From NCBI GenBank assembly GCA_947259285.1, contig CAMYMR010000003.1, positions 318 through 64,317 on the forward strand: a DNA stretch of 64,000 nt, given 5' to 3'. The DNA is from an uncultured Woeseiaceae bacterium. GTDB taxonomy: Bacteria > Pseudomonadota > Gammaproteobacteria > Steroidobacterales > Woeseiaceae. The notes under the pieces were generated by a model. It saw only the letters and a list, made by a program, of their open reading frames with translations. It was not told the origin of the DNA and made no database searches. The position numbers were made by a program, and so were the translations under genes. Shown here piece by piece: positions 3-9,499 of the stretch; position 1 is the first letter of the stretch, and every line of letters begins with the position of its first letter.

Positions 3-659
3 AACCTGGCGTTTTCGACCACGGATTTCAATTGCCTTGTGACCGACGCCGTCAAGGAAATAAGCTTTGGTGCCGGTGAGGTCCTGTTCACACAGGGCCA
101 GTCGAGTTCGAGCCTGTTTTCGATCAGTGAGGGCACGGTGAAGATCACCTGTCACTCGACGGATGGCAGGGAGCAGATCGTTGGTCTCAGCAGCCCCGGC
201 AAACTGCTTGTTGGCCTGCAGTCGCTCGACGATGACCATTACCGGTACTCGGCATTCGCCGCCACAGACGTTCGTGCCTGCAAGATACAGCACCGCCCGT
301 TGCTGGCTGCCGTCCGCCACAAGCCAGACGTTGCGATTCGGCTCATATCGGCCATCAATGCTCAGTTGGCGTACAGCCGATCGCTGATGCTGGTGATGGG
401 GCAGAAATGTGCCGCCGCGAAAATAGCCTCTTTCATCATGCTAATGGCACCAGGCAAGGATCACAGCAACGATCGATTTACGCTGCCGTTTTCGCGCAAT
501 GACCTTGCCGAAATGCTGGGGCTGAGCGAAGAGACCGTCTGCCGGCAGATGGCGAGCATGAAACGCCATGGCGTCATTTACGCACCGCGCGGCAAGATGC
601 AGGTCAAGGACTGGGGTCAGCTACGCGGTATTGCCGAGGGAACACTGCATATCCATTGA
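3..659 (+). CDS. Crp/Fnr-family transcriptional regulator, probably 5'-truncated by the window edge
   Basis: The ORF track gives 39..659 (GTG), but the frame has no stop back to nt 3. The N-part looks like an effector domain (GEVLFTQGQSSSSLFSISEGTVKI, GREQIVGL). The C-terminus has an HTH (RNDLAEMLGLSEETVCRQMASMKRHGVI). Confidence 0.8.
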   Translation, partial: NLAFSTTDFNCLVTDAVKEISFGAGEVLFTQGQSSSSLFSISEGTVKITCHSTDGREQIVGLSSPGKLLVGLQSLDDDHYRYSAFAATDVRACKIQHRPLLAAVRHKPDVAIRLISAINAQLAYSRSLMLVMGQKCAAAKIASFIMLMAPGKDHSNDRFTLPFSRNDLAEMLGLSEETVCRQMASMKRHGVIYAPRGKMQVKDWGQLRGIAEGTLHIH

Positions 660-867
660 GGGACCGGGAAAAGGGCGCCCTTCGCCAGAAGCCTAACCTG
701 CGCTGTCTCGATTCTCGTCGAGCCACCGGGCACAGGCTTTTGCTCGGAAACGCTTGATCTTCTCTATCTGATCTGGGCCAGGATGTTGCTGCGCAACATA
801 CACAGAATCTAAGAATCCCTGCTGGTCGCGCTGTAGGAATTTCTTCGTTGCCGGCGCCTATATAAAC

Positions 868-892
868 AAGGGGGCGGCTACGCCGCCCCCTT
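868..892 (-). terminator. Rho-independent terminator candidate downstream of the cytochrome gene
   Basis: 11-bp GC-rich stem AAGGGGGCGGC/GCCGCCCCCTT with a 3-nt loop. On the minus strand it is followed by GTTTATATA. It lies about 26 nt past the stop at 918. Confidence 0.6.
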
Positions 893-917
893 GGATAGCT
901 CCTTTCAAGTTGAGGTA

Positions 918-3275
918 CTAATCTCCGCCAGGTTCCTCGAATTTCGTCCGGAAAGACGGGTGGCAGCTGCCACAGGTGTTCGGCTGATCCGTATTAGGCT
1001 GGATCGTGACCACCTCGAAGCTGTGATCCGAGTTATCACCCGCGATAAACAGGCCATCATCGTCAACGAACCAGGAGCCGCTCTTCGCCGTCTTGGTCAT
1101 ATGGCAAGAGGTGCAGCGTCCTACCGGCCCTTCGCCCAGCCGGAAGTTCGCGGGGATATGCGAATCTTCTGGCTGATAAGGTGCCAGCGGCATACCCGCG
1201 GCCTCGCCGCTGTGGGTCTTGACGGCCTGCTCTACCAGGTCTTCCGCCGAGGTCTGTTCGGCGGCGTCCGGTGCCAGCGCGACGTCGTTCTTGTCGACGC
1301 TGCCGCCCCTGGAGACGTGGTAGACCGCGATGTCGTCTTTCGTCAACGTGGAGAACGGTCCGAAGCCGGCATGGCAGCTCAGGCAGCGCACATTGGACAT
1401 CAGGGCGTTCGAGTTGTCAGCGAACAGGAACTCGTTGCCGCCGAAATCATCAACCGTGAAGCGGAACGGGCCGCCACGGCCGCTATGCGGCGAGTGGCAG
1501 TCGTTGCAAGCCAGCTTGTCGAAAGGATTGTCGAGATGCATTGAGTTCAGGTAACTATTGTACTGCTGGCGATGACTCTTCGGGAAGCCGGTCGGCCAGT
1601 TGCCGGGTTTCTGGAAGAAGTAGCCTTCCGGCGCGTCCACGGCCTCGTAGTCCAGCGTATGAAGGCCGGCAATGAAGTTGCCGTCGAAGTCGGCCACGTC
1701 ACTGCGCCACGGGAATCCGAATGCACCGCCGCTGGGGGCCGGATCCGAGCCACGGCTGTGGCATTGGCCGCAGACGTTCACGGAATCCACTACCGACATG
1801 TGGTCCGGGTTCATGATCGCGTTCGGATCACCGCCACCGGAAACGTGACTGCTGCCCGGTCCATGGCATTTTTCGCAACCGATCCGATAGTCGACCGCTG
1901 AGTACTCGGTGACCAGGCCGGCCGCGTCAGCTGTAAGTCTGATCCCGGCTTCGTGGCAGCCCGAGCACTTCTTCGAGTAGGCTCGTTTCTGCTCGTACCA
2001 CTCCCATTGATGGTAGGACACCCACTCGAGCGTCCGCTGGTTGAACTGGATCGGAAGCATCAGCATGTCTTCGCAGGTCTGGGTCGTATCCCAGCTTACC
2101 CACGCCGGTTTCGGATTCTTGGCGAATGTACCTTCCGGGTTCAGCGTCGCGCAGGCGCCGAGGTCGGCGATGCTGACCATGTAGCGCTGCTTCCAGGCAC
2201 CGTTGATTTCCGTCGCAAGCGGGGGCATGCGACCCTGAAGTTCCGAAATCTCGCCCGCATGCGTGCCCGGTCCACCGTACGTCGCATAGACGGGGACCAC
2301 AAGGTCCACGGCTTCGTCCGCTACGCCGTCTGTGTTGCTATCGAACAATACCTCGTAGCGCGGATCGGGATCGTCGTTGCAAGTCCGGATGTAGGTACCG
2401 TGAGTCTCTGACCCCTTGTCAGGCGGTTCGGGTGGGATGTTGGAAACGACACCGGTATCGAACCAGGCACTGCAGAGTCCTGCGCCCGGATCGGCCGGCC
2501 AGCCGTTCAGGTCCATCTCCTCCAGCGAGCGCTCGACCACGCGATAGTGGCCGGAGCTCATCCATGCGTCGGTCAGGCCGCCGGCGTGGCAAAGCATGCA
2601 AACGTCGCTACCAATGAAATTCGCATCGCTCGCCGGGCCGCCCGACAGTTCGATATCGACGACGTCGCCGGCAGTCACTGAGACGCGTGTTCCGCCCTTC
2701 AGCAAGGTGGAGCCTGCCGGTGGCGTCACGCTCAGGAATTCGCGAACGACAGCGTCGATTGCGAAAGCGCCCGCCGCGTCGGTAACTGCATCCGCGCTAC
2801 CAGGCGCGGATACCGTCGCTCCTTCGACGGGTGTCCCATCCGGCGCGAGCACTGTGCCGCTAACCGTACCGGGAACACCGCTCACCGACACCGCAACATC
2901 CGTCGTCAGGCCGGCCGCGACATTCACAGAAGCCTCGGTCACCGTAACGCTTGTCCCCGCGATGCTGACGTTAACGTCATAGACACCAATGGGAACGTCT
3001 GCCAGGGCCGCTACACCCGTAGCGTCCGTGTCGACACTGGATGTCGCCGGATTAGTCGTGACGGTTGCGCCCTCAACGGGCGTACCGCCGGTGGTTACGG
3101 TTACACTGATCGTGCCCGTATCGACGGCGTCCTGGCCGTCAGCGCCCGGCGCCCCGGCAGCACCGGCAGCACCAGCAGCGCCATCGTCGCCTTCACAACC
3201 ACTCATTCCAAATGCGAGCGCGCACACGACGAGGGCTGACCAGGCGATTCGTTTGAATACTTCGAACCGGTTCAT
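918..3275 (-). CDS. Octaheme c-type cytochrome lipoprotein with N-terminal Ig-like (CarboxypepD_reg-like) repeats
   Basis: 785-aa ORF. The signal peptide ends in the lipobox-like FGMSGC, followed by a Gly/Ala linker (GAAGAAGAAGAPGADG). Two V/T-rich repeats contain GTPVEGATV. There are eight CXXCH motifs (CMLCH, CSGCH, CEKCH, CGQCH, CNDCH, CLSCH, CTSCH, CGSCH). Confidence 0.85.
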   Translation of the reverse strand: MNRFEVFKRIAWSALVVCALAFGMSGCEGDDGAAGAAGAAGAPGADGQDAVDTGTISVTVTTGGTPVEGATVTTNPATSSVDTDATGVAALADVPIGVYDVNVSIAGTSVTVTEASVNVAAGLTTDVAVSVSGVPGTVSGTVLAPDGTPVEGATVSAPGSADAVTDAAGAFAIDAVVREFLSVTPPAGSTLLKGGTRVSVTAGDVVDIELSGGPASDANFIGSDVCMLCHAGGLTDAWMSSGHYRVVERSLEEMDLNGWPADPGAGLCSAWFDTGVVSNIPPEPPDKGSETHGTYIRTCNDDPDPRYEVLFDSNTDGVADEAVDLVVPVYATYGGPGTHAGEISELQGRMPPLATEINGAWKQRYMVSIADLGACATLNPEGTFAKNPKPAWVSWDTTQTCEDMLMLPIQFNQRTLEWVSYHQWEWYEQKRAYSKKCSGCHEAGIRLTADAAGLVTEYSAVDYRIGCEKCHGPGSSHVSGGGDPNAIMNPDHMSVVDSVNVCGQCHSRGSDPAPSGGAFGFPWRSDVADFDGNFIAGLHTLDYEAVDAPEGYFFQKPGNWPTGFPKSHRQQYNSYLNSMHLDNPFDKLACNDCHSPHSGRGGPFRFTVDDFGGNEFLFADNSNALMSNVRCLSCHAGFGPFSTLTKDDIAVYHVSRGGSVDKNDVALAPDAAEQTSAEDLVEQAVKTHSGEAAGMPLAPYQPEDSHIPANFRLGEGPVGRCTSCHMTKTAKSGSWFVDDDGLFIAGDNSDHSFEVVTIQPNTDQPNTCGSCHPSFRTKFEEPGGD

Positions 3276-3388
3276 GATCCCACTCCTGAAATATTGAATT
3301 TAACCCGTGCTCAGAGTCACGCAATTGGGGTTGTTATCGGCGTACCTCTGGCACTTTTCGCAGCATAGGATCGATGGGCACTCGCAAC

Positions 3389-3404
3389 ACTGACAATTGT
3401 CAGT
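3389..3404. promoter_or_regulatory. Perfect 16-bp palindrome ACTGACAATTGTCAGT, candidate Crp/Fnr-type operator
   Basis: It contains the TGA-N6-TCA core of FNR/CRP-family boxes. It is centred about 121 nt upstream of the cytochrome start codon (3275, minus strand). Confidence 0.4.
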
Positions 3405-3664
3405 TTCGGCGCAGAAAATGCGTGTGGATTATGCGTACCGACGTCGCGGATTCTCGCGGTCTTTGCTTATTAACAGCGGGACAATTGCATTTATTGGAGT
3501 CGAAGGAGCCGGTATCGAATACTCTGCAACGACTCCGGTGGGTCACTAGCCGCGTTATGCGAACATTCAAGGTGCCCGCCGAACCGAAGCAAGGCCTCGT
3601 AGCGGACGTATCGGAATCAGATATCGGCGACCCGGCAGGGAGTCAGATCGCTTCGGCGAGAAAG

Positions 3665-3740
3665 TGGTGGGCCCCCGGGGACTCGAACCCCGGACCAAGA
3701 GATTAAGAGTCTCCTGCTCTACCAACTGAGCTAGAGGCCC
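3665..3740 (-). tRNA. tRNA-Lys (anticodon CUU)
   Basis: 76-nt cloverleaf on the minus strand: GGGCCUC-UA-GCUC-AGUUGGUA-GAGC-A-GGAGA-CUCUUAA-UCUCU-UGGUC-CGGGG-UUCGAGU-CCCCG-GGGGCCC-A-CCA. Confidence 0.9.
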
Positions 3741-3751
3741 CACCGTAAAAA

Positions 3752-3896
3752 TGGGGTGGACGATGGGACTCGAACCCCACTCCGGAGGTTCTCCAGGACC
3801 CTCCGCCGTCTACCCGGCTTCTTCCTTGTGACCGACCGGGATCATAAACAATCGATCCCGGTTGTCTGGATAAGTCGTGACGAATCACGCCTTACC
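3752..3896 (-). pseudogene. Degenerate tRNA-His-like element (tRNA-His pseudogene or att-type scar)
   Basis: Its 3' 26 nt are identical to the 3' end of tRNA-His. It has an anticodon-arm-like CCGGG-AUCGAUUGUUUAUGAU-CCCGG-UCG, where the real gene has CCGGG-UUGUGAU-CCCGG-UCG. About 57 nt are inserted before a weakened T-stem, and the 5' half has diverged (GGUAAGGCG versus GGUGGGCG). Confidence 0.4.
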
Positions 3897-3904
3897 ATCA
3901 AAAA

Positions 3905-3981
3905 TGGGGTGGACGATGGGACTCGAACCCACGACGACCGGGATCACAACCCGGGGCTCTACCAACTGAGCTACGCCCACC
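3905..3981 (-). tRNA. tRNA-His (anticodon GUG)
   Basis: 77 nt including G-1: G-GUGGGCG-UA-GCUC-AGUUGGUA-GAGC-C-CCGGG-UUGUGAU-CCCGG-UCGUC-GUGGG-UUCGAGU-CCCAU-CGUCCAC-C-CCA. Confidence 0.92.
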
Positions 3982-4035
3982 ACTGAACCTTCGATTTTAC
4001 TAGCAATTCCCCAACAATTCGCAACTCTGTCTGGA

Positions 4036-4508
4036 TGGCGCGCCCGGCAGGACTCGAACCTGCAACCCTCGGCTTAGCTTACCAACTACCGTTTTCACGG
4101 CCTCAATCATCCTGAGTTTGTGGTCTGGACTATCTCTTCGCCATCTCAGGCGCCGCACGTATAGTCTCTACGGAACCCTGCGAGGTCAGAGGCAAGACTT
4201 GCTTCTTTGCTCTGGCCGTTCTTGGACGTCTCTACCCTCGGTGATACGGTCAAGCCACTTACACGCTCGAACAAATCTACCTGAGCCTTCAAGACACCCA
4301 GGTCTCCCTTACTTTTGGCGTGATTCGACTGGTCCATTTCTCTCAGTCCGCTCCAATTCAGGGGTAAACCACAGGTTTCCACGGGATTGCCATCAGCATT
4401 ACCTGTTAAGGTTTCCCCGTTACAGTGCAGTCCACTGTGCCGGTTCAGTTTCCCGACACAGGCTCCTCACTCAAAGGCCGATGCTCTATCCAGTTGAGCT
4501 ACGGGCGC
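4036..4508 (-). tRNA. tRNA-Arg (anticodon UCU), interrupted by a 396-nt intron between U34 and C35
   Basis: The 5' exon is 4508..4474 and the 3' exon is 4077..4036. Joined, they give a 77-nt cloverleaf with perfect acceptor (GCGCCCG/CGGGCGC), D (GCUC/GAGC), anticodon (UCGGC/GCCGA) and T (GCAGG/CCUGC) stems and the loop CUUCUAA. From memory it is collinear with enterobacterial argU. Confidence 0.85.
4078..4473 (-). ncRNA. Group I (self-splicing type) intron in the tRNA-Arg(UCU) anticodon loop
   Basis: The insert follows a U and ends in G. Exon CCUU can pair with intron GAGG (nt 6-9) to form P1 with a U-G wobble. R-like GUUCCGUAGAGACUAUACG (4176..4158) and S-like AAGAGAUAGUCC (4138..4127) elements are present. 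GACUAU/AUAGUC can form P7 flanking a CGCC/GGCG hairpin. There are GNRA hairpins such as CCGU-GAAA-ACGG. Confidence 0.75.
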
Positions 4509-4553
4509 TCGATTATTGCAATACGCAAAACTCCTCAAAATGCAGAAAAATGT

Positions 4554-4630
4554 TGGTCGGGGCAGACGGATTCGAACCGCCGACCCTCTGCTCCCAAAGC
4601 AGATGCGCTACCAGACTGCGCCATGCCCCG
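4554..4630 (-). tRNA. tRNA-Pro (anticodon UGG)
   Basis: 77-nt cloverleaf: CGGGGCA-UG-GCGC-AGUCUGGUA-GCGC-A-UCUGC-UUUGGGA-GCAGA-GGGUC-GGCGG-UUCGAAU-CCGUC-UGCCCCG-A-CCA. Confidence 0.92.
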
Positions 4631-4686
4631 ATACCAGTGTTTCCGCCACGCGTCACCGGGCCGGAGCCGGGTTTTGCGGGGGCACG

Positions 4687-4715
4687 ATAATACGGGCGCG
4701 GGCGGAGCCAAGCAA
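4687..4715 (-). promoter_or_regulatory. Candidate sigma70 promoter of the tRNA operon
   Basis: On the minus strand: TTGCTT (4715..4710), a 17-nt spacer, then TATTAT (4692..4687), followed by the GC-rich discriminator CGTGCCCCCGC. It lies about 55 nt upstream of tRNA-Pro. Confidence 0.3.
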
Positions 4716-4806
4716 GCGCCTGGCGAAAGCCACGGTGCGGCTTGGCCGGACATCCTGCGCTCTGGTATCTTGCCGCTTCATGTCTCCTGGAAGAAGCGGA
4801 AGGACG

Positions 4807-5394
4807 ATGAGAAAAGCCCTGGTTACGGTGTTGCTCGCGCTATGCTCGGCGATGACGCTCGCGGCGGACAAGGTGCCCGCCCACCCACATATCGAAATGG
4901 TGACCTCGCTCGGCACCATCAGACTTGAACTGGACGGCAAACAGGCGCCGCTAACGGTCGCGCATTTCCTGAAACTCGTCGACAGTGGCTTTTATGACGG
5001 CACCGTCTTTCACCGCGTGATTCCCGGCTTCATGGTGCAGGGCGGCGGCTATACGCCCGGCCTCAAGCTCAAGGAAAAGGGAGCGTCCATTCCGAACGAA
5101 TCGGGCAACGGGATGACCAATGCGCGCGGCACGATTGCCATGGCGCGAACCGGCGACCCGCATTCAGCGAACTCGCAGTTCTTCATCAACGTTGCGGACA
5201 ACGAGAATCTCGACCCCAGTAAGAACACCTACAACGGCCGCTGGGGCTACGCGGTGTTCGGCTTTGTGATCGAAGGTATCGAGGTCGTCGACGCGATCGC
5301 CGGCACCAAAACCGGGCCCGGTGGCAAATTTCGCAAAGACGTACCCGTGGTTCCGGTGATCATCAAGAAGATCTCCCGCGTGACGTACGACTGA
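4807..5394 (+). CDS. ppiA: Peptidyl-prolyl cis-trans isomerase, cyclophilin type, with signal peptide
   Basis: The start was moved to ATG 4807 (MRKALVTVLLALCSAMTLAADK) behind GGAAGG, because the upstream part of the track ORF runs through tRNA-Pro. Cyclophilin motifs are present: FHRVIPGFMVQGGG and SANSQFFIN. Confidence 0.9.
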   Translation: MRKALVTVLLALCSAMTLAADKVPAHPHIEMVTSLGTIRLELDGKQAPLTVAHFLKLVDSGFYDGTVFHRVIPGFMVQGGGYTPGLKLKEKGASIPNESGNGMTNARGTIAMARTGDPHSANSQFFINVADNENLDPSKNTYNGRWGYAVFGFVIEGIEVVDAIAGTKTGPGGKFRKDVPVVPVIIKKISRVTYD

Positions 5395-5405
5395 AACGAC
5401 GCGCC

Positions 5406-6131
5406 GTGACCACCCTTTTCATCTCAGATTTGCACCTGGACGCAAACCGACCGGAAATCGGCGAACAGTTCTTACAGTTTCTCCAAGGCGAGGCGGCCGG
5501 AGCCGACGCGCTCTATATTCTGGGCGACCTTTTTGAATCCTGGGTCGGCGACGATGACCCGAACCCGCACTACGCGATCATGAAAGCTGCCATCCGGAAA
5601 CTCGTCGACGCCGGCGTTCCAGTCTTCTTCATGCACGGCAATCGTGACTTCATGATCGGCGAGCGGTTCGCCGAGGAAACCGGCGTGACGCTTCTGGACG
5701 ATCCGGTCTGCATCGAAATCCACGGCCAAAAGGTGCTGCTAAGCCACGGCGATGCGCTGTGCATTGACGACCAGCAGTATCAGCAGGTGCGACTCATGAC
5801 CCGGAATCCGAAGTGGCAGGCAATGATGCGCGCCAAACCGCTGGAAGAGCGTATTGCATTCGCCGAGCAGGCCAGAAAGCAGAGTAAGGAATACATGGAT
5901 TCCGTCGGCGAAGACATCATGGACGTCAACCAGGACGCCGTTGTGGGCACGTTTCGAAAACGCGGTGTCGACATACTCTTGCACGGACACACACACCGTC
6001 CGGCAATTCACGATGTGGACCTCAAAGACCGTATCGCGAAACGAATTGTTCTTGGCGACTGGTACGACCACGGCAGCGTGGTGCGCTGGGACGGCAACGG
6101 ACCACGACTGGAAGCGATGCCGAGATCGTAG
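5406..6131 (+). CDS. lpxH: UDP-2,3-diacylglucosamine diphosphatase
   Basis: MTTLFISDLHLD...LYILGDLFESWVGDDD...GNRDF...HGHTHRP is the calcineurin-like LpxH pattern. The position after ppi matches E. coli. Confidence 0.9.
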   Translation: MTTLFISDLHLDANRPEIGEQFLQFLQGEAAGADALYILGDLFESWVGDDDPNPHYAIMKAAIRKLVDAGVPVFFMHGNRDFMIGERFAEETGVTLLDDPVCIEIHGQKVLLSHGDALCIDDQQYQQVRLMTRNPKWQAMMRAKPLEERIAFAEQARKQSKEYMDSVGEDIMDVNQDAVVGTFRKRGVDILLHGHTHRPAIHDVDLKDRIAKRIVLGDWYDHGSVVRWDGNGPRLEAMPRS

Positions 6132-6140
6132 TTCCGCGAC

Positions 6141-6184
6141 GGGGACATTCTGCTTTATTCCAAGCGATAAAGCAGAATGTCCCC
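6141..6184. repeat. REP-like palindromic hairpin, copy 1 of 3 (probable bidirectional terminator)
   Basis: GGGGACATTCTGCTTT, a 12-nt loop, then AAAGCAGAATGTCCCC. It lies between the convergent stops of lpxH (6131) and miaE (6187). The same arms occur at 36039 and 49632. Confidence 0.8.
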
Positions 6185-6186
6185 GT

Positions 6187-6810
6187 TTATTGCGGGGGGC
6201 CCGAGTGGAAGCGGAAGTCCGGATCCGGGTCCGACACCAGCCGTGCTTCGATGCGCTTCAACTCTGTGAGCCGCGCGTCGATCTCCGCGCTTTCAACGCC
6301 GCACTCCGATCGAGCAAACTCAATATAGTGTTCGAAGTGGCGAGCCTCGGACGCCAGCAAGCCGGCGTAGAAGCGACCAAGCGGCTCGGGCAGGTGCGGC
6401 GCGAGTCGCGCGAAGCGTTCGCAGGAGCGCGCTTCGATCAGTGCGCCGATCAGCAGCATATCGAGCAACTTCTGCGGCTCCGTCTGGCGCGCCACCTGCC
6501 GCAGTCGCCCCGCGTATCGTGAAGCACTGAGGCGCTCAAACGGAACGCCCATGTCGTCCATGATCGACCGAACCTGCTCGAAGTGGCGCAGCTCCTCACG
6601 CGCCAGCTTCGACATTCTCTGCGCCAAAGCCCCCCGGTCCGGGTAGCGATACAGAAATCCGAGCGCCGTCGACGCCGCTTTCAGCTCGCAGTTGGCGTGG
6701 TCGAGCAGCAGTTCCGGAACTCGGCCGCATGCCTCCTCGATCCACTGTTCAGGCGTCGTCAAATCCAGGAAATCATCGATAGACGGCGGCACGGCGCAGG
6801 CTACAGCCAT
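6187..6810 (-). CDS. miaE: tRNA 2-methylthio-N6-isopentenyl-adenosine(37) hydroxylase
   Basis: DHANCELKAASTAL, REELRHFEQV, IEARSCERFA, SEARHFEHY and DFRFHSG match the di-iron MiaE pattern as I remember it from Salmonella. Confidence 0.8.
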   Translation of the reverse strand: MAVACAVPPSIDDFLDLTTPEQWIEEACGRVPELLLDHANCELKAASTALGFLYRYPDRGALAQRMSKLAREELRHFEQVRSIMDDMGVPFERLSASRYAGRLRQVARQTEPQKLLDMLLIGALIEARSCERFARLAPHLPEPLGRFYAGLLASEARHFEHYIEFARSECGVESAEIDARLTELKRIEARLVSDPDPDFRFHSGPPQ

Positions 6811-7739
6811 TCGTCAATCTCCGCGGCGCTTTGCAGCCGGTCTTCCGGCGCTTTGGCAAGCAACAGATTAAGCAGCATCTGGTATTTCGCCAGCCGCTTG
6901 GGCAGCAATGGTATCGCCGCCATGGCGTGTCTGAAAATGATGCCCATGGCCGAGCCCGCCGTAAACGGTTTCTCGCCAGTGAGCATTTCGTAAAAGATCA
7001 CGCCAAGGCTGTATATATCGCTACGCTCGTCGGCACCCGTGCCGTGTCCCTGCTCGGGGCTCATGTAGTAAGGCGTTCCGAATATCTCGCCTTTGTCGGT
7101 GATCTCGCTCTCCAGGCGTGCGCGCTTTGCGAGGCCGAAATCGATGAGGCCTATCGTTCCGTCTTTGCGCAGCATGATATTGCCGGGCTTGAGATCTCGA
7201 TGCAGCACGCCCTGCCCGTGCACTGCCGCCAGCGCGCTGGCGATCTGGCGCAGGTAGCTTACGGCGTCGTCCGTCTCAATACCCGCGTCGATCTTGCTTC
7301 GCAAGTCACCACCGTCGAGGTACTCCATCGCGATGTGCGCGTGATCGTCGGCTACGCCCAGGTCATATATCTTTACGATGTGGGGATGATTCATTTCCGC
7401 GATCGTTTCGTACTCCTGCAGAAAACGATCAAATGCGCCGATAGTGGCATCGTTCAGCGTCGGCTGGCGCAGGACCTTCAAGGCGACCGGCAACTCGTCG
7501 ACTTCACGTTCGGCCAGGTACACACCGGAATACTCGGTGGAAGCAAGCTTTTTTACGAAACGATAGCCTTTTATCAGCGGATGTACGCCGGTCCTCAAGT
7601 CACCGACGAAAAGCATTTCCGTGGACACGCCATGGCGTCGTTCGACCAGCAGGTCGGTCAGCCGAACCATCAGCGCCGAATGGTTGAATGCGTCTCGCGT
7701 AAAGTACGCGTCCGGCGACAGCTTCTGTACCGCGACCAA
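6801..7739 (-). CDS. Eukaryotic-like Ser/Thr protein kinase (kinase-domain ORF; see the upstream receiver-like ORF)
   Basis: VALKVL, HRDLKPGNIML, DFGLAK and GTPYYMSPEQ are present. The track start is a TTG, and the frame is open upstream to 7781. Confidence 0.85.
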   Translation of the reverse strand: MVAVQKLSPDAYFTRDAFNHSALMVRLTDLLVERRHGVSTEMLFVGDLRTGVHPLIKGYRFVKKLASTEYSGVYLAEREVDELPVALKVLRQPTLNDATIGAFDRFLQEYETIAEMNHPHIVKIYDLGVADDHAHIAMEYLDGGDLRSKIDAGIETDDAVSYLRQIASALAAVHGQGVLHRDLKPGNIMLRKDGTIGLIDFGLAKRARLESEITDKGEIFGTPYYMSPEQGHGTGADERSDIYSLGVIFYEMLTGEKPFTAGSAMGIIFRHAMAAIPLLPKRLAKYQMLLNLLLAKAPEDRLQSAAEIDEWL

Positions 7740-7941
7740 TTCCTCGTCCGCGCTCCTCGCCGTGACGGTTACCGAGCAGAATCAGGTCGTTGCCGGCGCC
7801 CGAGAATTCGTCCGGAAGGTGTCCGGACTCACTGGGATCGTAGGCCGTCACGATCGCTTCCGGCCAGTGCGACATGACGTGATAGGTCAGCAGCCGGCGG
7901 AACTCCGCCTGCGCGTCGATGATCATCACCCGAATGCTCAT
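7600..7941 (-). CDS. Receiver-like N-terminal ORF, probably the frameshifted 5' part of the kinase gene
   Basis: MSIRVMIIDAQAEFRRLLTYHVM...AIVTAYDP...NDLILLG follows the CheY-like strand/helix pattern, with G in place of the acceptor Asp. It then decays into R/G-rich sequence and overlaps the kinase frame out of frame. Confidence 0.4.
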   Translation of the reverse strand: MSIRVMIIDAQAEFRRLLTYHVMSHWPEAIVTAYDPSESGHLPDEFSGAGNDLILLGNRHGEERGRGIGRGTEAVAGRVLYARRIQPFGADGSADRPAGRTTPWRVHGNAFRR

Positions 7942-7987
7942 ACGCGACTAGCTGCGCGCGCGGATTATGCCGCGATCGCGAATGCCG

Positions 7988-9499
7988 CTAAAGCGCGACA
8001 ACGTTCGACGCCCGCGATTCCTTCTGATGTCGAGACTGCTTGGCGGCGTCATTACGGCGCAGCTCGAGTTCATGCAAATATTCCTGTGTGACATCGCCCG
8101 TCACGTATTCACCCGAGAAACAGGAGGTATCGAACTCACGGATGGCGGAGTTACCATGCCGCACCGAGCGAATCAGGCCGTGCAGGTCCTGGTAAATCAG
8201 CCGGTCGGCTCCGATGAGTTCCTGAATCTCCTCGACCGTTCTGCCGTTTGCGATCAGCTCCGACGCGGCCGGCATGTCGATGCCGTAGACATTCGGGTGC
8301 CGCACCGGCGGCGCGGCAGACGCAAAATACACCTTTCTTGCACCCGCCTCGCGCGCGAGCTTGATGATCTGCTGCGACGTCGTGCCGCGAACGATCGAGT
8401 CGTCCACCAGCAGCACATTCTTCTTGCGGAATTCTAGGCTGATCGCATTCAACTTTCGCCGCACCGACTGCGCGCGCTCCGCCTGTCCCGGCATAATGAA
8501 TGTCCGCCCGATGTATCGGTTCTTGATAAAGCCTTCGCGATACTTGACGCCGAGGTGATAGGCTACCTGCAGGGCGGCCGTGCGACTCGTGTCCGGGATA
8601 GGAATGACCACATCGATGTCGTGGTCCGGGAAATCGCGCACGATCTTTCCGGCCAGCTGCTCGCCCATTCGCAGCCGTGCCTTGTAAACCGACAGATCGT
8701 CGAGGATGCTGTCCGGCCGCGCGAAATAGACGTATTCAAATATGCAGGGCGTATGGCGCGTCTCGCCGCCGAACGCGCGGCTGTGTATTGCGCCACTGTT
8801 CTCAATGTAGACACATTCGCCGGGACTTACATCGCGCACGCGCTTGAACTGCAGCGCGTCAAGCGCGACGCTCTCAGAGGCGACCATGTATTCCTTACGC
8901 GACTTCGACTTGCGCTGTCCGAGCACGAGTGGCCGGATCCCGTTCGGGTCGCGGAAGGCGACGATACCGAAACCTATGATCATGGCGACGACGGCGTAGC
9001 CACCCGTGCAGCGCCTGTGCACGGCCGCGACGGCATCGAAAATATTGTCGGCGGTTGGGTAGCCGTCGACTACCCTCTGCAGCTCGTGGGCGAACACGTT
9101 AAGCAAGACTTCCGAGTCCGAATTGGTACTCAGGTGACGGCGGTCTTTGTCGATCAGAAGCTCGGCAAGCTCATCGAAATTGGTGAGATTTCCGTTATGC
9201 GCGAGACAGATGCCGTAGGGTGAATTGACATAGAAAGGCTGCGCCTCCGAGGATTTCGAACCGCCGGCTGTCGGGTAGCGAACATGGCCAATGCCCACGT
9301 GTCCGGCCAGCCGCATCATGTGCCGACTGCGAAATACGTCCCGCACCAGGCCGTTACTCTTGCGCTGCGCCAGCCCGTCCTGCTCGCTCCACGTCACGAT
9401 ACCGGCAGCATCCTGACCGCGGTGCTGCATCACCGTCAATGCGTTATAAAGATCCTGGTTAACGGCTTGTGCACCGACAATTCCGACAACGCCACACAT
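7988..9499 (-). CDS. purF: Amidophosphoribosyltransferase
   Basis: [10 protein letters not shown]-terminal nucleophile and a PRTase motif ([13 protein letters not shown]), in cvpA-purF context. Confidence 0.95.

Follow-up and report, generated by a model that had tools for sequence, protein, structure and literature searches.

An IC3-like group I intron with a decayed homing-endonuclease gene, predicted in the anticodon loop of tRNA-Arg(UCU) in an uncultured Woeseiaceae bacterium

On the minus strand of the window (the whole 64-kb stretch of DNA analyzed here), a tRNA operon contains a split gene for tRNA-Arg(UCU) (Table 1). Joining the two exons gives a 77-nt tRNA, and the 396-nt insert lies in the anticodon loop between nucleotides 34 and 35 (U34|C35). 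Run in intron mode, ARAGORN reports a tRNA-Arg(tct) at c[4036,4508] whose first anticodon base is followed by a 396-nt intron (gcctt-intron-ctaag), and its drawing of the joined 77-mer is a cloverleaf with all four stems fully paired. A preliminary description of this locus had given exactly these exon and intron coordinates; its four perfect stems and UCU anticodon are confirmed by the ARAGORN cloverleaf, and the intron-aware tRNA search it suggested returns the gene. In default mode, ARAGORN does not call the tRNA-Arg(UCU) gene, and no second tRNA-Arg was found in the 64-kb window. The same tRNA occurs without interruption on Legionella and Pseudomonas megaplasmids (H1-H4), where both exon pieces map to 75-77 contiguous bases with 89-95% identity.

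The tRNA order of the operon is also found in the relatives L136, L140, L160, L178 (Lentisalinibacter salinarum X77), L183 and L221. The operon had been described as Pseudomonas-like, but the syntenic genome closest to it among the matches listed is L136, a MAG from uncultured Gammaproteobacteria (73-85% identity over window positions 12-8943). Among named organisms, the intron has its nearest relatives in the Woeseiaceae and their allies. A promoter and terminator scan yielded nothing useful for the tRNA operon. The plus-strand ORFs at 4118-4690, 4425-4928 and, in part, 4516-5394 are antisense to the tRNA genes and the intron, and are regarded as spurious here.

Table 1 Features of the tRNA operon and of the intron within tRNA-Arg(UCU)
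Feature	Position	Strand	Details
Host operon	3665..4630	-	tRNA order Pro-Arg-His-Lys
tRNA-Pro(UGG)	4630..4554	-	host operon member
tRNA-His(GUG)	3980..3905	-	host operon member
tRNA-Lys(CUU)	3740..3665	-	host operon member
5' exon	4474..4508	-	acceptor, D arm, 5' anticodon stem, loop C32 U33 U34
3' exon	4036..4077	-	C35 U36 A37 A38, 3' anticodon stem, variable loop, T arm
3' exon end	within 4036..4077	-	acceptor, G73, encoded CCA
Predicted group I intron, 396 nt, IC3-like tRNA type 'Arg.3Ug'	4078..4473	-	omega G at 4078
P1	4463..4476	-	C32 U33 U34 and intron U1 (4476..4473) with guide GGAG
P2 hairpin, 9 bp	4435..4461	-	CUGUGUCGG/CCGGCACAG, GAAACUGAA loop
P3 5' strand CUGCAC	4425..4430	-	5/6 pairs compensatory; 98.6% paired
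P3 3' strand GUGCGG	4153..4158	-	makes P3/P7 pseudoknot
P4-P5-P5a domain	4381..4420	-	ACGGG/CCCGU; CC..GG; CAG/CUG; inside nhmmer seed-profile match 4465..4364
P6 (GGA) and P6a (CCUGUGG) 5' strands	4369..4380	-	8/10 pairs compensatory
P6a and P6 3' strands (UCGCAGG, UCC)	4172..4183	-	covariation, same helix as 4369..4380
P7 5' strand G(A)GACUA, bulged A	4162..4168	-	preceded by conserved J6/7 GUA
J8/7 AAGAGA and P7 3' strand UAGUCC	4127..4138	-	alignment and seed profile
P8 hairpin CGCC-UGAGAU-GGCG	4139..4152	-	3/4 pairs compensatory; 100% paired
P9 domain	4078..4124	-	P9 ACCA/UGGU, P9a CUCA/UGAG, P9b GCCGU-GAAA-ACGGU, AAG tail to omega G
P6a terminal-loop insertion	4184..4368	-	intron nt 106-290; remnant of a decayed homing-endonuclease gene
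Coding remnant	about 4328..4171	-	deletion junction near 4265|4264
P6b/P6c hairpin	4224..4299	-	GGGUGUCUU/GAGACGUCC and CUC/GAG around GAAGG/GGGUA internal loop

Judged by its sequence, the insert belongs to the group I introns, and among these to the small IC3-like class of bacterial tRNA anticodon loops. The architecture comprises P1-P9 including the P3/P7 pseudoknot, with a U·G wobble at the 5' splice site and a terminal G. The ribozyme portion of about 215 nt is made up of intron nucleotides 1-105 and 291-396, while the remaining ~185 nt lie in the P6a loop.

The fold was assessed by covariation across 60 tRNA-Arg(UCU) introns (74 pairs in 14 helices, 3890 cells). Paired cells amount to 94.8%, compared with 33.8-41.0% for slid partners; compensatory changes occur in 54 of the 74 pairs, and none of 500 shuffles reaches any of the measures. 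The P1-P9 covariation that the preliminary description had asked for on homologous loci is present, and P2, P3, P4, P6, P8, P9, P9a and P9b each covary. P2 has compensatory changes in 9/9 pairs (96.5% of cells paired), and P5 carries a receptor-like internal loop, CCUUAAC...GAUGG, between CC..GG. The window intron has the consensus base in every one of the 102 columns with at least 90% conservation among the other 59 introns. The P7 strands G(A)GACUA/UAGUCC and J8/7 AAGAGA agree with those of the Azoarcus and cyanobacterial seeds, the P7 5' strand being identical; the invariance of P7 in our own alignments is partly an ascertainment artefact, since the retrieval pattern fixed those bases. The group I fold is absent from the single-sequence MFE fold (z = -2.3), which was not the basis of the structure model.

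P1 is formed with the guide GGAG at intron nucleotides 8-11 (4466..4463), which is invariant in the homologues. Its pairs are U34·G9, U33-A10, C32-G11 and U+1·G8, and the combinations UG, UA and CG are each present in 60/60 introns. The exon pairing with a U·G wobble had been proposed before and stands, but not in the original register (CCUU with GAGG, nucleotides 6-9). That register is possible in the window sequence alone, and it was rejected; relatives such as L200 (UAAGUAAGGAGCC) and L140 lose the wobble there and keep it with GGAG. The other elements pointed out earlier are all present, namely the R-like (4176..4158) and S-like (4138..4127) segments, the CGCC/GGCG hairpin, which is P8, a GAAA-capped hairpin, which is P9b, and the terminal G. 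The original reading of a group I intron that follows U34, ends in G and has a P7/P8 core is supported by ARAGORN, covariation and the seed profile.

This profile was built with nhmmer from nine published seeds, including Azoarcus Ile2.5Ug, Arg.5Ug, Leu.3Ug, fMet.2Ug and Arg.3Ug. Against the 64-kb window, its only matches are 4465..4364 (E 2.9e-7) and 4182..4079 (E 1.6e-12). A curated intron database assigns the four classical seed members to subgroup IC3. The type 'Arg.3Ug' appears in the seed material of Williams 2020 (bioRxiv 10.1101/2020.01.27.920355). The preliminary description found no described family that fits; the intron aligns with this published bacterial tRNA intron seed as type Arg.3Ug, so that the tRNA-Arg(UCU) intron type is already catalogued and the window holds a good but ordinary example. 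Nor is it rare, as had been implied: at least 103 species-representative bacterial genomes from many phyla carry the same tRNA-Arg(UCU) intron. In 103 of the 108 related loci among the matches listed, boundaries at U-1 and omega G could be assigned, and in-silico splicing of 103 loci yields tRNA-Arg(tct) every time.

An Rfam search had been proposed as a further check. The model concerned, Intron_gpI, helps to detect group I introns and does not define them. RF00028 returns nothing on the window locus, either at the gathering score or at E up to 10, so the negative outcome stands as such. On a homologous 226-nt intron (L126), the same model scores 34.1 bits over its full length (gathering 50; E 7.9e-6), and it gives no match on the homologues L183, L137 and L199 or on the phage intron L001. 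Because the model misses or under-scores clear homologues, being weakly sensitive to this intron family, we do not take the miss as a valid refutation. The missing Rfam match might suggest that another kind of mobile element has landed in the anticodon loop by chance, for instance a MITE, a piece of an IS or of a group II intron, or an intron of the archaeal, protein-spliced type. However, the insert has no transposase or reverse-transcriptase likeness, its only recognizable coding remnant is that of an endonuclease, and the exact U-1/omega-G boundaries recur at one site in at least 103 genomes. Covariation over the full P1-P9 and the significant hit of the profile made from published group I tRNA introns effectively refute this explanation, to which we give next to no credence.

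Among known introns, the Arg.3Ug seed is the closest counterpart in host and site. Seed Rba190.Arg.3Ug has an identical site 3 (CUU/intron/CUAA, loop position 3), U-1 and omega G in the same type of tRNA, and the core (GUAGAGACUA ... AAGrGAUAGUCCAG) and GAAA-capped P9 hairpin are the same. The seed example is 219 nt long and ORF-less, whereas the window intron has 396 nt because an endonuclease remnant is kept in P6a. The Azoarcus tRNA-Ile(CAU) intron (IC3; 'Ile2.5Ug'), a structural and biochemical model, is of the same class and shares the core, near-identical P7 and J8/7, the P2 GAAA loop and the receptor-like P5. It differs in lying after position 36 instead of 34, in another tRNA, with about 205 nt, a simpler P9 and no ORF remnant. 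The cyanobacterial and plastid tRNA-Leu(UAA) intron ('Leu.3Ug') occupies the same site, U34|35, and has a homologous core, but its anticodon is UAA and its classic lineage is cyanobacteria and plastids. The Agrobacterium/alpha-proteobacterial tRNA-Arg(CCU) intron ('Arg.5Ug') likewise resides in an arginine tRNA, belongs to IC3 and is part of the seed profile; it differs in isoacceptor (CCU) and in site, after position 36. The Synechocystis tRNA-fMet intron, which encodes the PD-(D/E)XK homing endonuclease I-Ssp6803I, is another tRNA group I intron with an endonuclease of the PF11645 / 2OST family. Its host tRNA and site differ, and the window intron retains coding ends only.

The insertion in P6a is lacking in the 218-222-nt relatives and is about 250 nt longer in the 637-645-nt relatives. 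The introns of 637-672 nt in relatives encode an ORF of ~136-148 amino acids (PF11645 PDDEXK_5, E 2e-38; PDB 2OST, E 1.5e-4) with the catalytic core E...PFD...(V/I)QVK, and no intact ORF with this core exists in the window intron. A tblastn comparison of the window with the relatives' ORF recovers an N-terminal (E 1e-10) and a C-terminal (E 2e-6) segment. Surviving are the first ~22 and the last ~25 codons, with the catalytic middle (~250 nt) deleted; the remnant retains only SNHAKSKGDLGVLKAQVDLFE and SPRVETSKNGQSKEASLASD, is frameshifted and has no start codon. It is thus recognizable as a pseudogene of an I-Ssp6803I-like PD-(D/E)XK homing endonuclease (PF11645), a gene that would once have given the intron its mobility. 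The earlier statement that the intron has no homing-endonuclease ORF holds for an intact ORF, but the extra length is a remnant that both alignment and tblastn can identify. L136 carries an intact 645-nt version of the intron in the same operon. With its relatives, the window intron forms a clean natural series of the endonuclease life cycle in one conserved operon slot, with ~640 nt (intact), 396 nt (remnant, in the window) and ~220 nt (none).

The P6b/P6c hairpin has as its two strands what were once the 5' and 3' coding ends of the endonuclease gene; 81.8% of its cells are paired compared with 40-53% in slid controls, and it is also found in the MFE fold. One possibility is that the ~185-nt P6 extension, with its GAA/GUA internal loop, serves as a functional RNA module that aids folding or binds a factor. 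Introns with and without the ORF alike preserve the pairing of the former coding ends, with compensatory pairs at 7/9 in helix 8 and 3/3 in helix 9, and such a role would explain the retention of the extension in ORF-less introns of Bacillaceae and others. However, the module is missing altogether from many members of the family (198-250 nt), and the fold can thus do without it; covariation is moderate, as 43 of 500 shuffles equal or exceed the count of covarying pairs; and the conservation may reflect recent descent from ORF-containing ancestors together with protein-coding constraint. We therefore regard a functional module as doubtful.

The decay of the endonuclease gene is clear, and it raises the question of whether the whole intron is a relic that no longer splices, leaving the tRNA gene a pseudogene and AGA/AGG decoding to an intron-less paralogue elsewhere. 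In metagenome scans, the exact deletion junction gave 0 matches and the exon-intron junction gave nine contigs. The contigs covering the whole intron hold full-length forms of ~620-647 nt (83-89% identity) and not the deletion variant of the window, and this includes relatives with the same first 26 intron bases, as the relic reading would allow. Against this stand the highly conserved ribozyme columns, all at consensus, the intactness of every helix, the perfect cloverleaf of the exons, the intron-containing gene in the same operon slot of many related genomes and the lack of another tRNA-Arg in the window. Loss of the endonuclease with retention of the ribozyme is moreover an expected stage of the homing-endonuclease life cycle, a model reportedly established by Goddard and Burt in 1999. 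A dead intron in a pseudogene is accordingly improbable in our assessment.

Together, our results make it very probable that an IC3-like group I intron occupies U34|C35, that it consists of a ~215-nt ribozyme and a dead endonuclease remnant, and that it would be self-splicing. The sequences show how the gene is built, its homology, its covarying secondary structure and the endonuclease remnant, whereas we infer its catalytic activity and the cell's dependence on it. The mechanism is modelled by homology on the Azoarcus tRNA-Ile and cyanobacterial tRNA-Leu introns, which have been studied experimentally. In the proposed pathway, folding of the operon transcript would bring exon C32-U33-U34 together with the guide GGAG to form P1 with the U34·G wobble. 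Free guanosine at the P7 site would attack behind U34. The terminal G (4078) would then take the same P7 site, and the freed 3'-OH of U34 would attack the 3' splice site. This would restore the CUUCUAA anticodon loop and release the intron, and ordinary end-processing would then give tRNA-Arg(UCU). In principle, the 185-nt insert could slow folding.

It is plausible that AGA decoding depends on this splicing. If the gene is the only one for tRNA-Arg(UCU), an essential decoding function would rest on RNA self-splicing, a dependence already accepted for tRNA-Leu(UAA) in cyanobacteria. It is tempting to go further and picture an immobile, domesticated intron within the sole source of tRNA-Arg(UCU), whose splicing efficiency adjusts how much of the AGA/AGG decoder is available and thereby how genes rich in these codons are translated; we give this extension only a slim chance. 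Guanosine, Mg2+ and folding would determine that efficiency, perhaps with modulation through the retained P6b/P6c module.

The biology is familiar, that of a mobile ribozyme that has settled in a tRNA gene and is halfway to losing its homing endonuclease. In practice, the finding bears on annotation, as the gene is missed by default ARAGORN and by Rfam at the gathering score. With default tools missing the gene, genomes of this lineage and of many others will seem to be without an AGA decoder. Even intron-aware ARAGORN gets the identity or the boundaries wrong at roughly one in three of the related loci. The authors of tRNAscan-SE 2.0 state that their program was not designed for group I intron detection.

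Phages, too, carry a tRNA-Arg(UCU) intron, and phage group I introns have modules in common with the window intron. Phage and bacterial tRNA-Arg(UCU) introns share only the core (72-89% identity over short stretches), and this sequence comparison gives no evidence of recent phage-to-host transfer. The DNA-polymerase intron of Enterococcus phage EF1 is 87% identical over 47 nt in the P4-P5-P5a domain. Among phage contigs with the same core motif, the commonest host is tRNA-Leu(UAA).

The tRNA-Arg(UCU) gene of the window is split by a 396-nt insert between U34 and C35, and its exon halves lie where the preliminary description placed them. The elements listed for the insert lie at the coordinates given for them, namely the R-like and S-like strings, the CGCC/GGCG and GAAA hairpins and the terminal G. 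Intron-aware ARAGORN calls a tRNA-Arg(tct) in which all four stems are fully paired and a 396-nt intron separates 'gcctt' from 'ctaag'. Both exon pieces match 75-77 contiguous bases of uninterrupted tRNA-Arg genes on large Legionella and Pseudomonas replicons (H1-H4; blastn, 89-95% identity), which independently supports reading the two halves as one gene. Default ARAGORN and Rfam at its gathering score report only the three neighboring tRNAs, and thus an essential-looking tRNA gene escapes standard tools, which gives the finding value for annotation. No second tRNA-Arg was found in the 64-kb window by intron-aware ARAGORN. tRNA-Arg(UCU) is usually encoded by a single copy and is, to our knowledge, the sole reader of AGA. 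AGA decoding may depend on the window intron.

Coordinates of the split tRNA gene, its neighborhood and the related phage locus
Feature	Sequence	Position	Strand	Basis
Candidate operon promoter	window	4687-4715	minus	by eye
tRNA-Pro(UGG)	window	4554-4630	minus	default ARAGORN, Rfam
tRNA-Arg(UCU), whole gene	window	c[4036,4508]	minus	intron-aware ARAGORN
5' exon GCGCCCGUAGCUCAACUGGAUAGAGCAUCGGCCUU	window	4508..4474	minus	
Intron	window	4473..4078	minus	
GGAG guide	window	4466..4463	minus	
P2 to P6 5' strand	window	4465..4364	minus	seed profile, E 2.9e-7
P4-P5-P5a ACGGGGAAACCUUAACAGGUAAUGCUGAUGGCAAUCCCGUGG	window	4376-4422	minus	
Coding-end helix	window	4224-4299	minus	
P6 3' strand to P9	window	4182..4079	minus	seed profile, E 1.6e-12
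3' exon CUAAGCCGAGGGUUGCAGGUUCGAGUCCUGCCGGGCGCGCCA	window	4077..4036	minus	
tRNA-His(GUG)	window	3905-3980	minus	default ARAGORN, Rfam
tRNA-Lys(CUU)	window	3665-3740	minus	default ARAGORN, Rfam
785-aa ORF	window	918-3275	minus	
tRNA-Lys(UUU)	jumbo phage L001	1366-1634		
tRNA-Arg(UCU)	jumbo phage L001	1765-2016		
HEARO RNA	jumbo phage L001	2164-2388		Rfam RF02033, 144 bits

That the insert is a group I intron is upheld by covariation and by matches to a profile of published introns. The structure was drawn by homology with the consensus of a published seed alignment and mapped onto the window sequence, and the window intron was aligned with 59 distinct ORF-less tRNA-Arg(UCU) introns (alignment A1). 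In the P1-P9 covariation check proposed earlier, covering 74 pairs in 14 helices, standard pairs fill 94.8% of 3890 cells, versus 33.8-41.0% when the 3' partners are slid by 1-3 columns. Compensatory double changes occur at 54 of the 74 pairs, and none of 500 shuffles equalled any measure. P2 (9/9 pairs), P3 (5/6) and P4 (5/5) covary, as do P6/P6a, P8, P9, P9a and P9b. P7 is invariant, which says little because its bases are fixed by the search pattern. P1 is likewise invariant (C-G, U-A, U·G, plus N+1 paired with G); the proposed U34 wobble stands, but the register moves from GAGG at intron nt 6-9 to a conserved GGAG guide at nt 8-11, with U34·G9. The GAGG guide is a sublineage-only alternative, and its wobble is lost in relatives such as L200 and L140. 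Of the alignment columns, 102 show at least 90% conservation in the other 59 introns, and at each of these the window intron has the consensus base, so the ribozyme looks intact. Some tRNA-Arg(UCU) introns carry 20-50-nt hairpins in the P1 loop between splice site and guide (for example L128, L153, L193, L224 and L232; A1 columns 8-56) or insertions in L5 (columns 127-176); the window intron has neither.

By analogy with the Azoarcus and cyanobacterial introns, exogenous guanosine would attack after U34, the terminal intron G (omega G, 4078) would then take its place in the P7 site, and exon ligation would restore the loop C32-U33-U34-C35-U36-A37-A38. This is the splicing route predicted for the window intron.

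The preliminary description could not place the intron in a described family, which no longer holds. According to a preprint (Williams, bioRxiv 2020, 10.1101/2020.01.27.920355), bacterial tRNA introns have grown from four classical types (Leu.3Ug, Arg.5Ug, fMet.2Ug and Ile2.5Ug), classified as IC3 in a curated intron database, to 21. Its seed Rba190.Arg.3Ug, which starts CUUC, lies in tRNA-Arg at loop position 3 with U as last exon base (U-1) and omega G; the window intron is of this same type, reported in the preprint only. A profile rebuilt from nine of these seeds, Azoarcus Ile2.5Ug among them, matches the window in two segments, the extra segment of the intron being the exact gap between them, and finds nothing significant elsewhere in the 64 kb (next best E 0.59). 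With Arg.3Ug in the published seed, these matches make the window intron a member of a described class.

A negative result with Rfam RF00028, named earlier as potential refutation, was indeed obtained: a 651-nt slice gave no match even at E values up to 10. The model also leaves the introns of jumbo phage L001 unreported, scores a 226-nt bacterial homologue (L126) at 34.1 bits over the full model length (E 7.9e-6; below the gathering score of 50) and gives no score to homologues L183, L137 and L199. Thus the negative reflects insensitivity of the model and does not refute the intron, in agreement with the remark that none of the 12 original RF00028 seed sequences is bacterial (Williams 2020, 10.1101/2020.01.27.920355).

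One bacterial genome per species was scanned for the P7 motif with a downstream CTAAG, yielding at least 120 loci (L124-L243). For 108 of the 120 listed, ARAGORN made an intron-containing tRNA call that included the motif. With boundaries re-derived from U-1 and omega G, 103 of the 108 are tRNA-Arg, CUU/intron...G/CUAAG, and all 103 products spliced in silico were called tRNA-Arg(tct). The claim of an unusual host is not supported, the same intron being present in at least 103 loci. The organisms behind the 120 listed loci belong to several phyla, with Gammaproteobacteria (Woeseiaceae, Ca. Thiodiazotropha, Chromatiales, Arenicellales), Acidobacteriota, Bacteroidota, Bacillaceae (among them a strain of Bacillus cereus and B. 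gaemokensis), Omnitrophota, Chloroflexota and others represented. The window intron is an example of a known, catalogued and widespread type. For about one-third of the listed genes intron-aware ARAGORN gave a wrong identity or wrong boundaries (Ser(GCU), SeC(UCA), Arg(CCG), Leu, Glu, Pyl, Trp), because shifted splice sites or a false anticodon stem were chosen.

Intron lengths among the loci listed are bimodal (~198-320 and ~600-680 nt) with a few intermediates, the window intron included. The 218-222-nt introns of close relatives L183 and L221 align over their whole length with its nt 1-102 and 291-396. In the 645-nt L136 intron, nt 1-209 and 466-645 align with its nt 1-209 and 217-396. The long introns encode, in the P6a loop, a conserved ORF of ~136-148 aa that matches Pfam PF11645 PDDEXK_5 (E 2e-38) and ends at the UAG of the conserved J6/7 'CCGUAGAG'. 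Among solved structures its best match is PDB 2OST (E 1.5e-4), which is I-Ssp6803I, a homing endonuclease encoded by the tRNA-fMet intron of Synechocystis. By tblastn the window keeps only two pieces of this ORF, in one frame and directly abutting: SNHAKSKGDLGVLKAQVDLFE (residues 5-26, E 1e-10) and SPRVETSKNGQSKEASLASD (residues 112-135, E 2e-6). The catalytic PFD...QVK middle is lost, no start codon is left, and a 1-nt deletion shifts the frame ahead of the final RRVP. The intron thus lacks a homing-endonuclease ORF, as first described, but its doubled size has an ordinary explanation in an endonuclease gene in decay, of which it is a clear intermediate.

The 5' coding end of the endonuclease (..LGVLKA..) is complementary to the 3' coding end (..RVETP..), forming 9 bp and 3 bp around a GAA(G/U)/GGUA internal loop that resembles a loop-E/sarcin-ricin motif (A1 columns 280-297/341-356; columns 305-321/655-670 of a second alignment, A2). 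This pairing is kept, with compensatory changes, whether the intron contains the ORF or is one of the ~285-320-nt forms that lack it (Bacillaceae and others); the ORF is thus looped out of a structured P6 extension that outlives it.

The label Pseudomonas-like for the operon is not supported. The operon region is syntenic with L136, an 8-kb locus of an uncultured Gammaproteobacteria MAG (window 12-8943, 73-85% identity). L136 shares the multihaem-cytochrome, Lys-His-Arg-Pro tRNA, peptidyl-prolyl isomerase and LpxH genes, and its 645-nt intron is intact. The Pro-Arg-His-Lys operon recurs in related Woeseiaceae-type genomes, where the intron is 637-645 or 218-222 nt long. Contigs from metagenomes that have the first 26 bases of the intron in common with the window and cover the intron from end to end have ~620-647-nt forms, and the window's deletion junction was absent from those scanned. 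Invasion, decay and loss form the established homing-endonuclease cycle; the sequence comparisons picture a long-resident intron whose endonuclease was lost independently in sublineages. Upstream, 57 nt from tRNA-Pro, TTGCTT and TATTAT with a 17-nt spacer, followed by a G+C-rich stretch, form a plausible operon promoter, unreported by a consensus scan because the -35 hexamer matches at 3/6 positions. The 785-aa ORF directly downstream of the operon matches decahaem c-type cytochrome families only weakly, with a best E of 3.6e-15 (56 bits versus a cutoff of 325) and a span of ~80 residues, and is kept in L136 (85% nucleotide identity over 1953-3173).

The same core is found in phages. The 3' third of the insert matches (blastn, phage genomes) L001 (LR756508.1, uncultured, 484 kb), where an insert of 193 nt with a near-identical core GAUCCGUAGAGACUAUACGUGCC...GAUAUAGUCCAGAC interrupts tRNA-Lys(UUU) at the same loop position, and the adjacent tRNA-Arg(UCU) carries a 175-nt insert at the identical position; both are small group I introns. 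A strong match to HEARO, an HNH-endonuclease-associated RNA, lies ~150 nt further downstream. The two P7 strands, searched as AGAGACTA N15-45 ATAGTCCAGAC, are very common among IMG/VR phage contigs (at least 120 loci, L004-L123). In the viral loci listed, intron-mode ARAGORN makes at least 96 intron-containing tRNA calls with the motif inside the anticodon-loop insert, mostly Leu(UAA), with four further Arg(UCU). Met, Asn, Thr, Lys, Ser, Arg and suppressor-like UCA/UUA anticodons also occur among them. The ~700-nt phage versions presumably carry ORFs. No discussion of this phage reservoir was found in the literature searched. In the same blastn search, the insert's 3' region also matched a crAss-like phage whose DnaB gene has a GIY-YIG-containing intron; the match is to the 3' end of that intron. 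P4-P5-P5a is a highly conserved module common to tRNA introns and phage protein-gene introns. The window segment is 87% identical to 1501-1547 of Enterococcus phage EF1 (L002), a Gram-positive phage, which lies in an intron interrupting a DNA polymerase gene and is followed by an ORF starting MGYIYAY.
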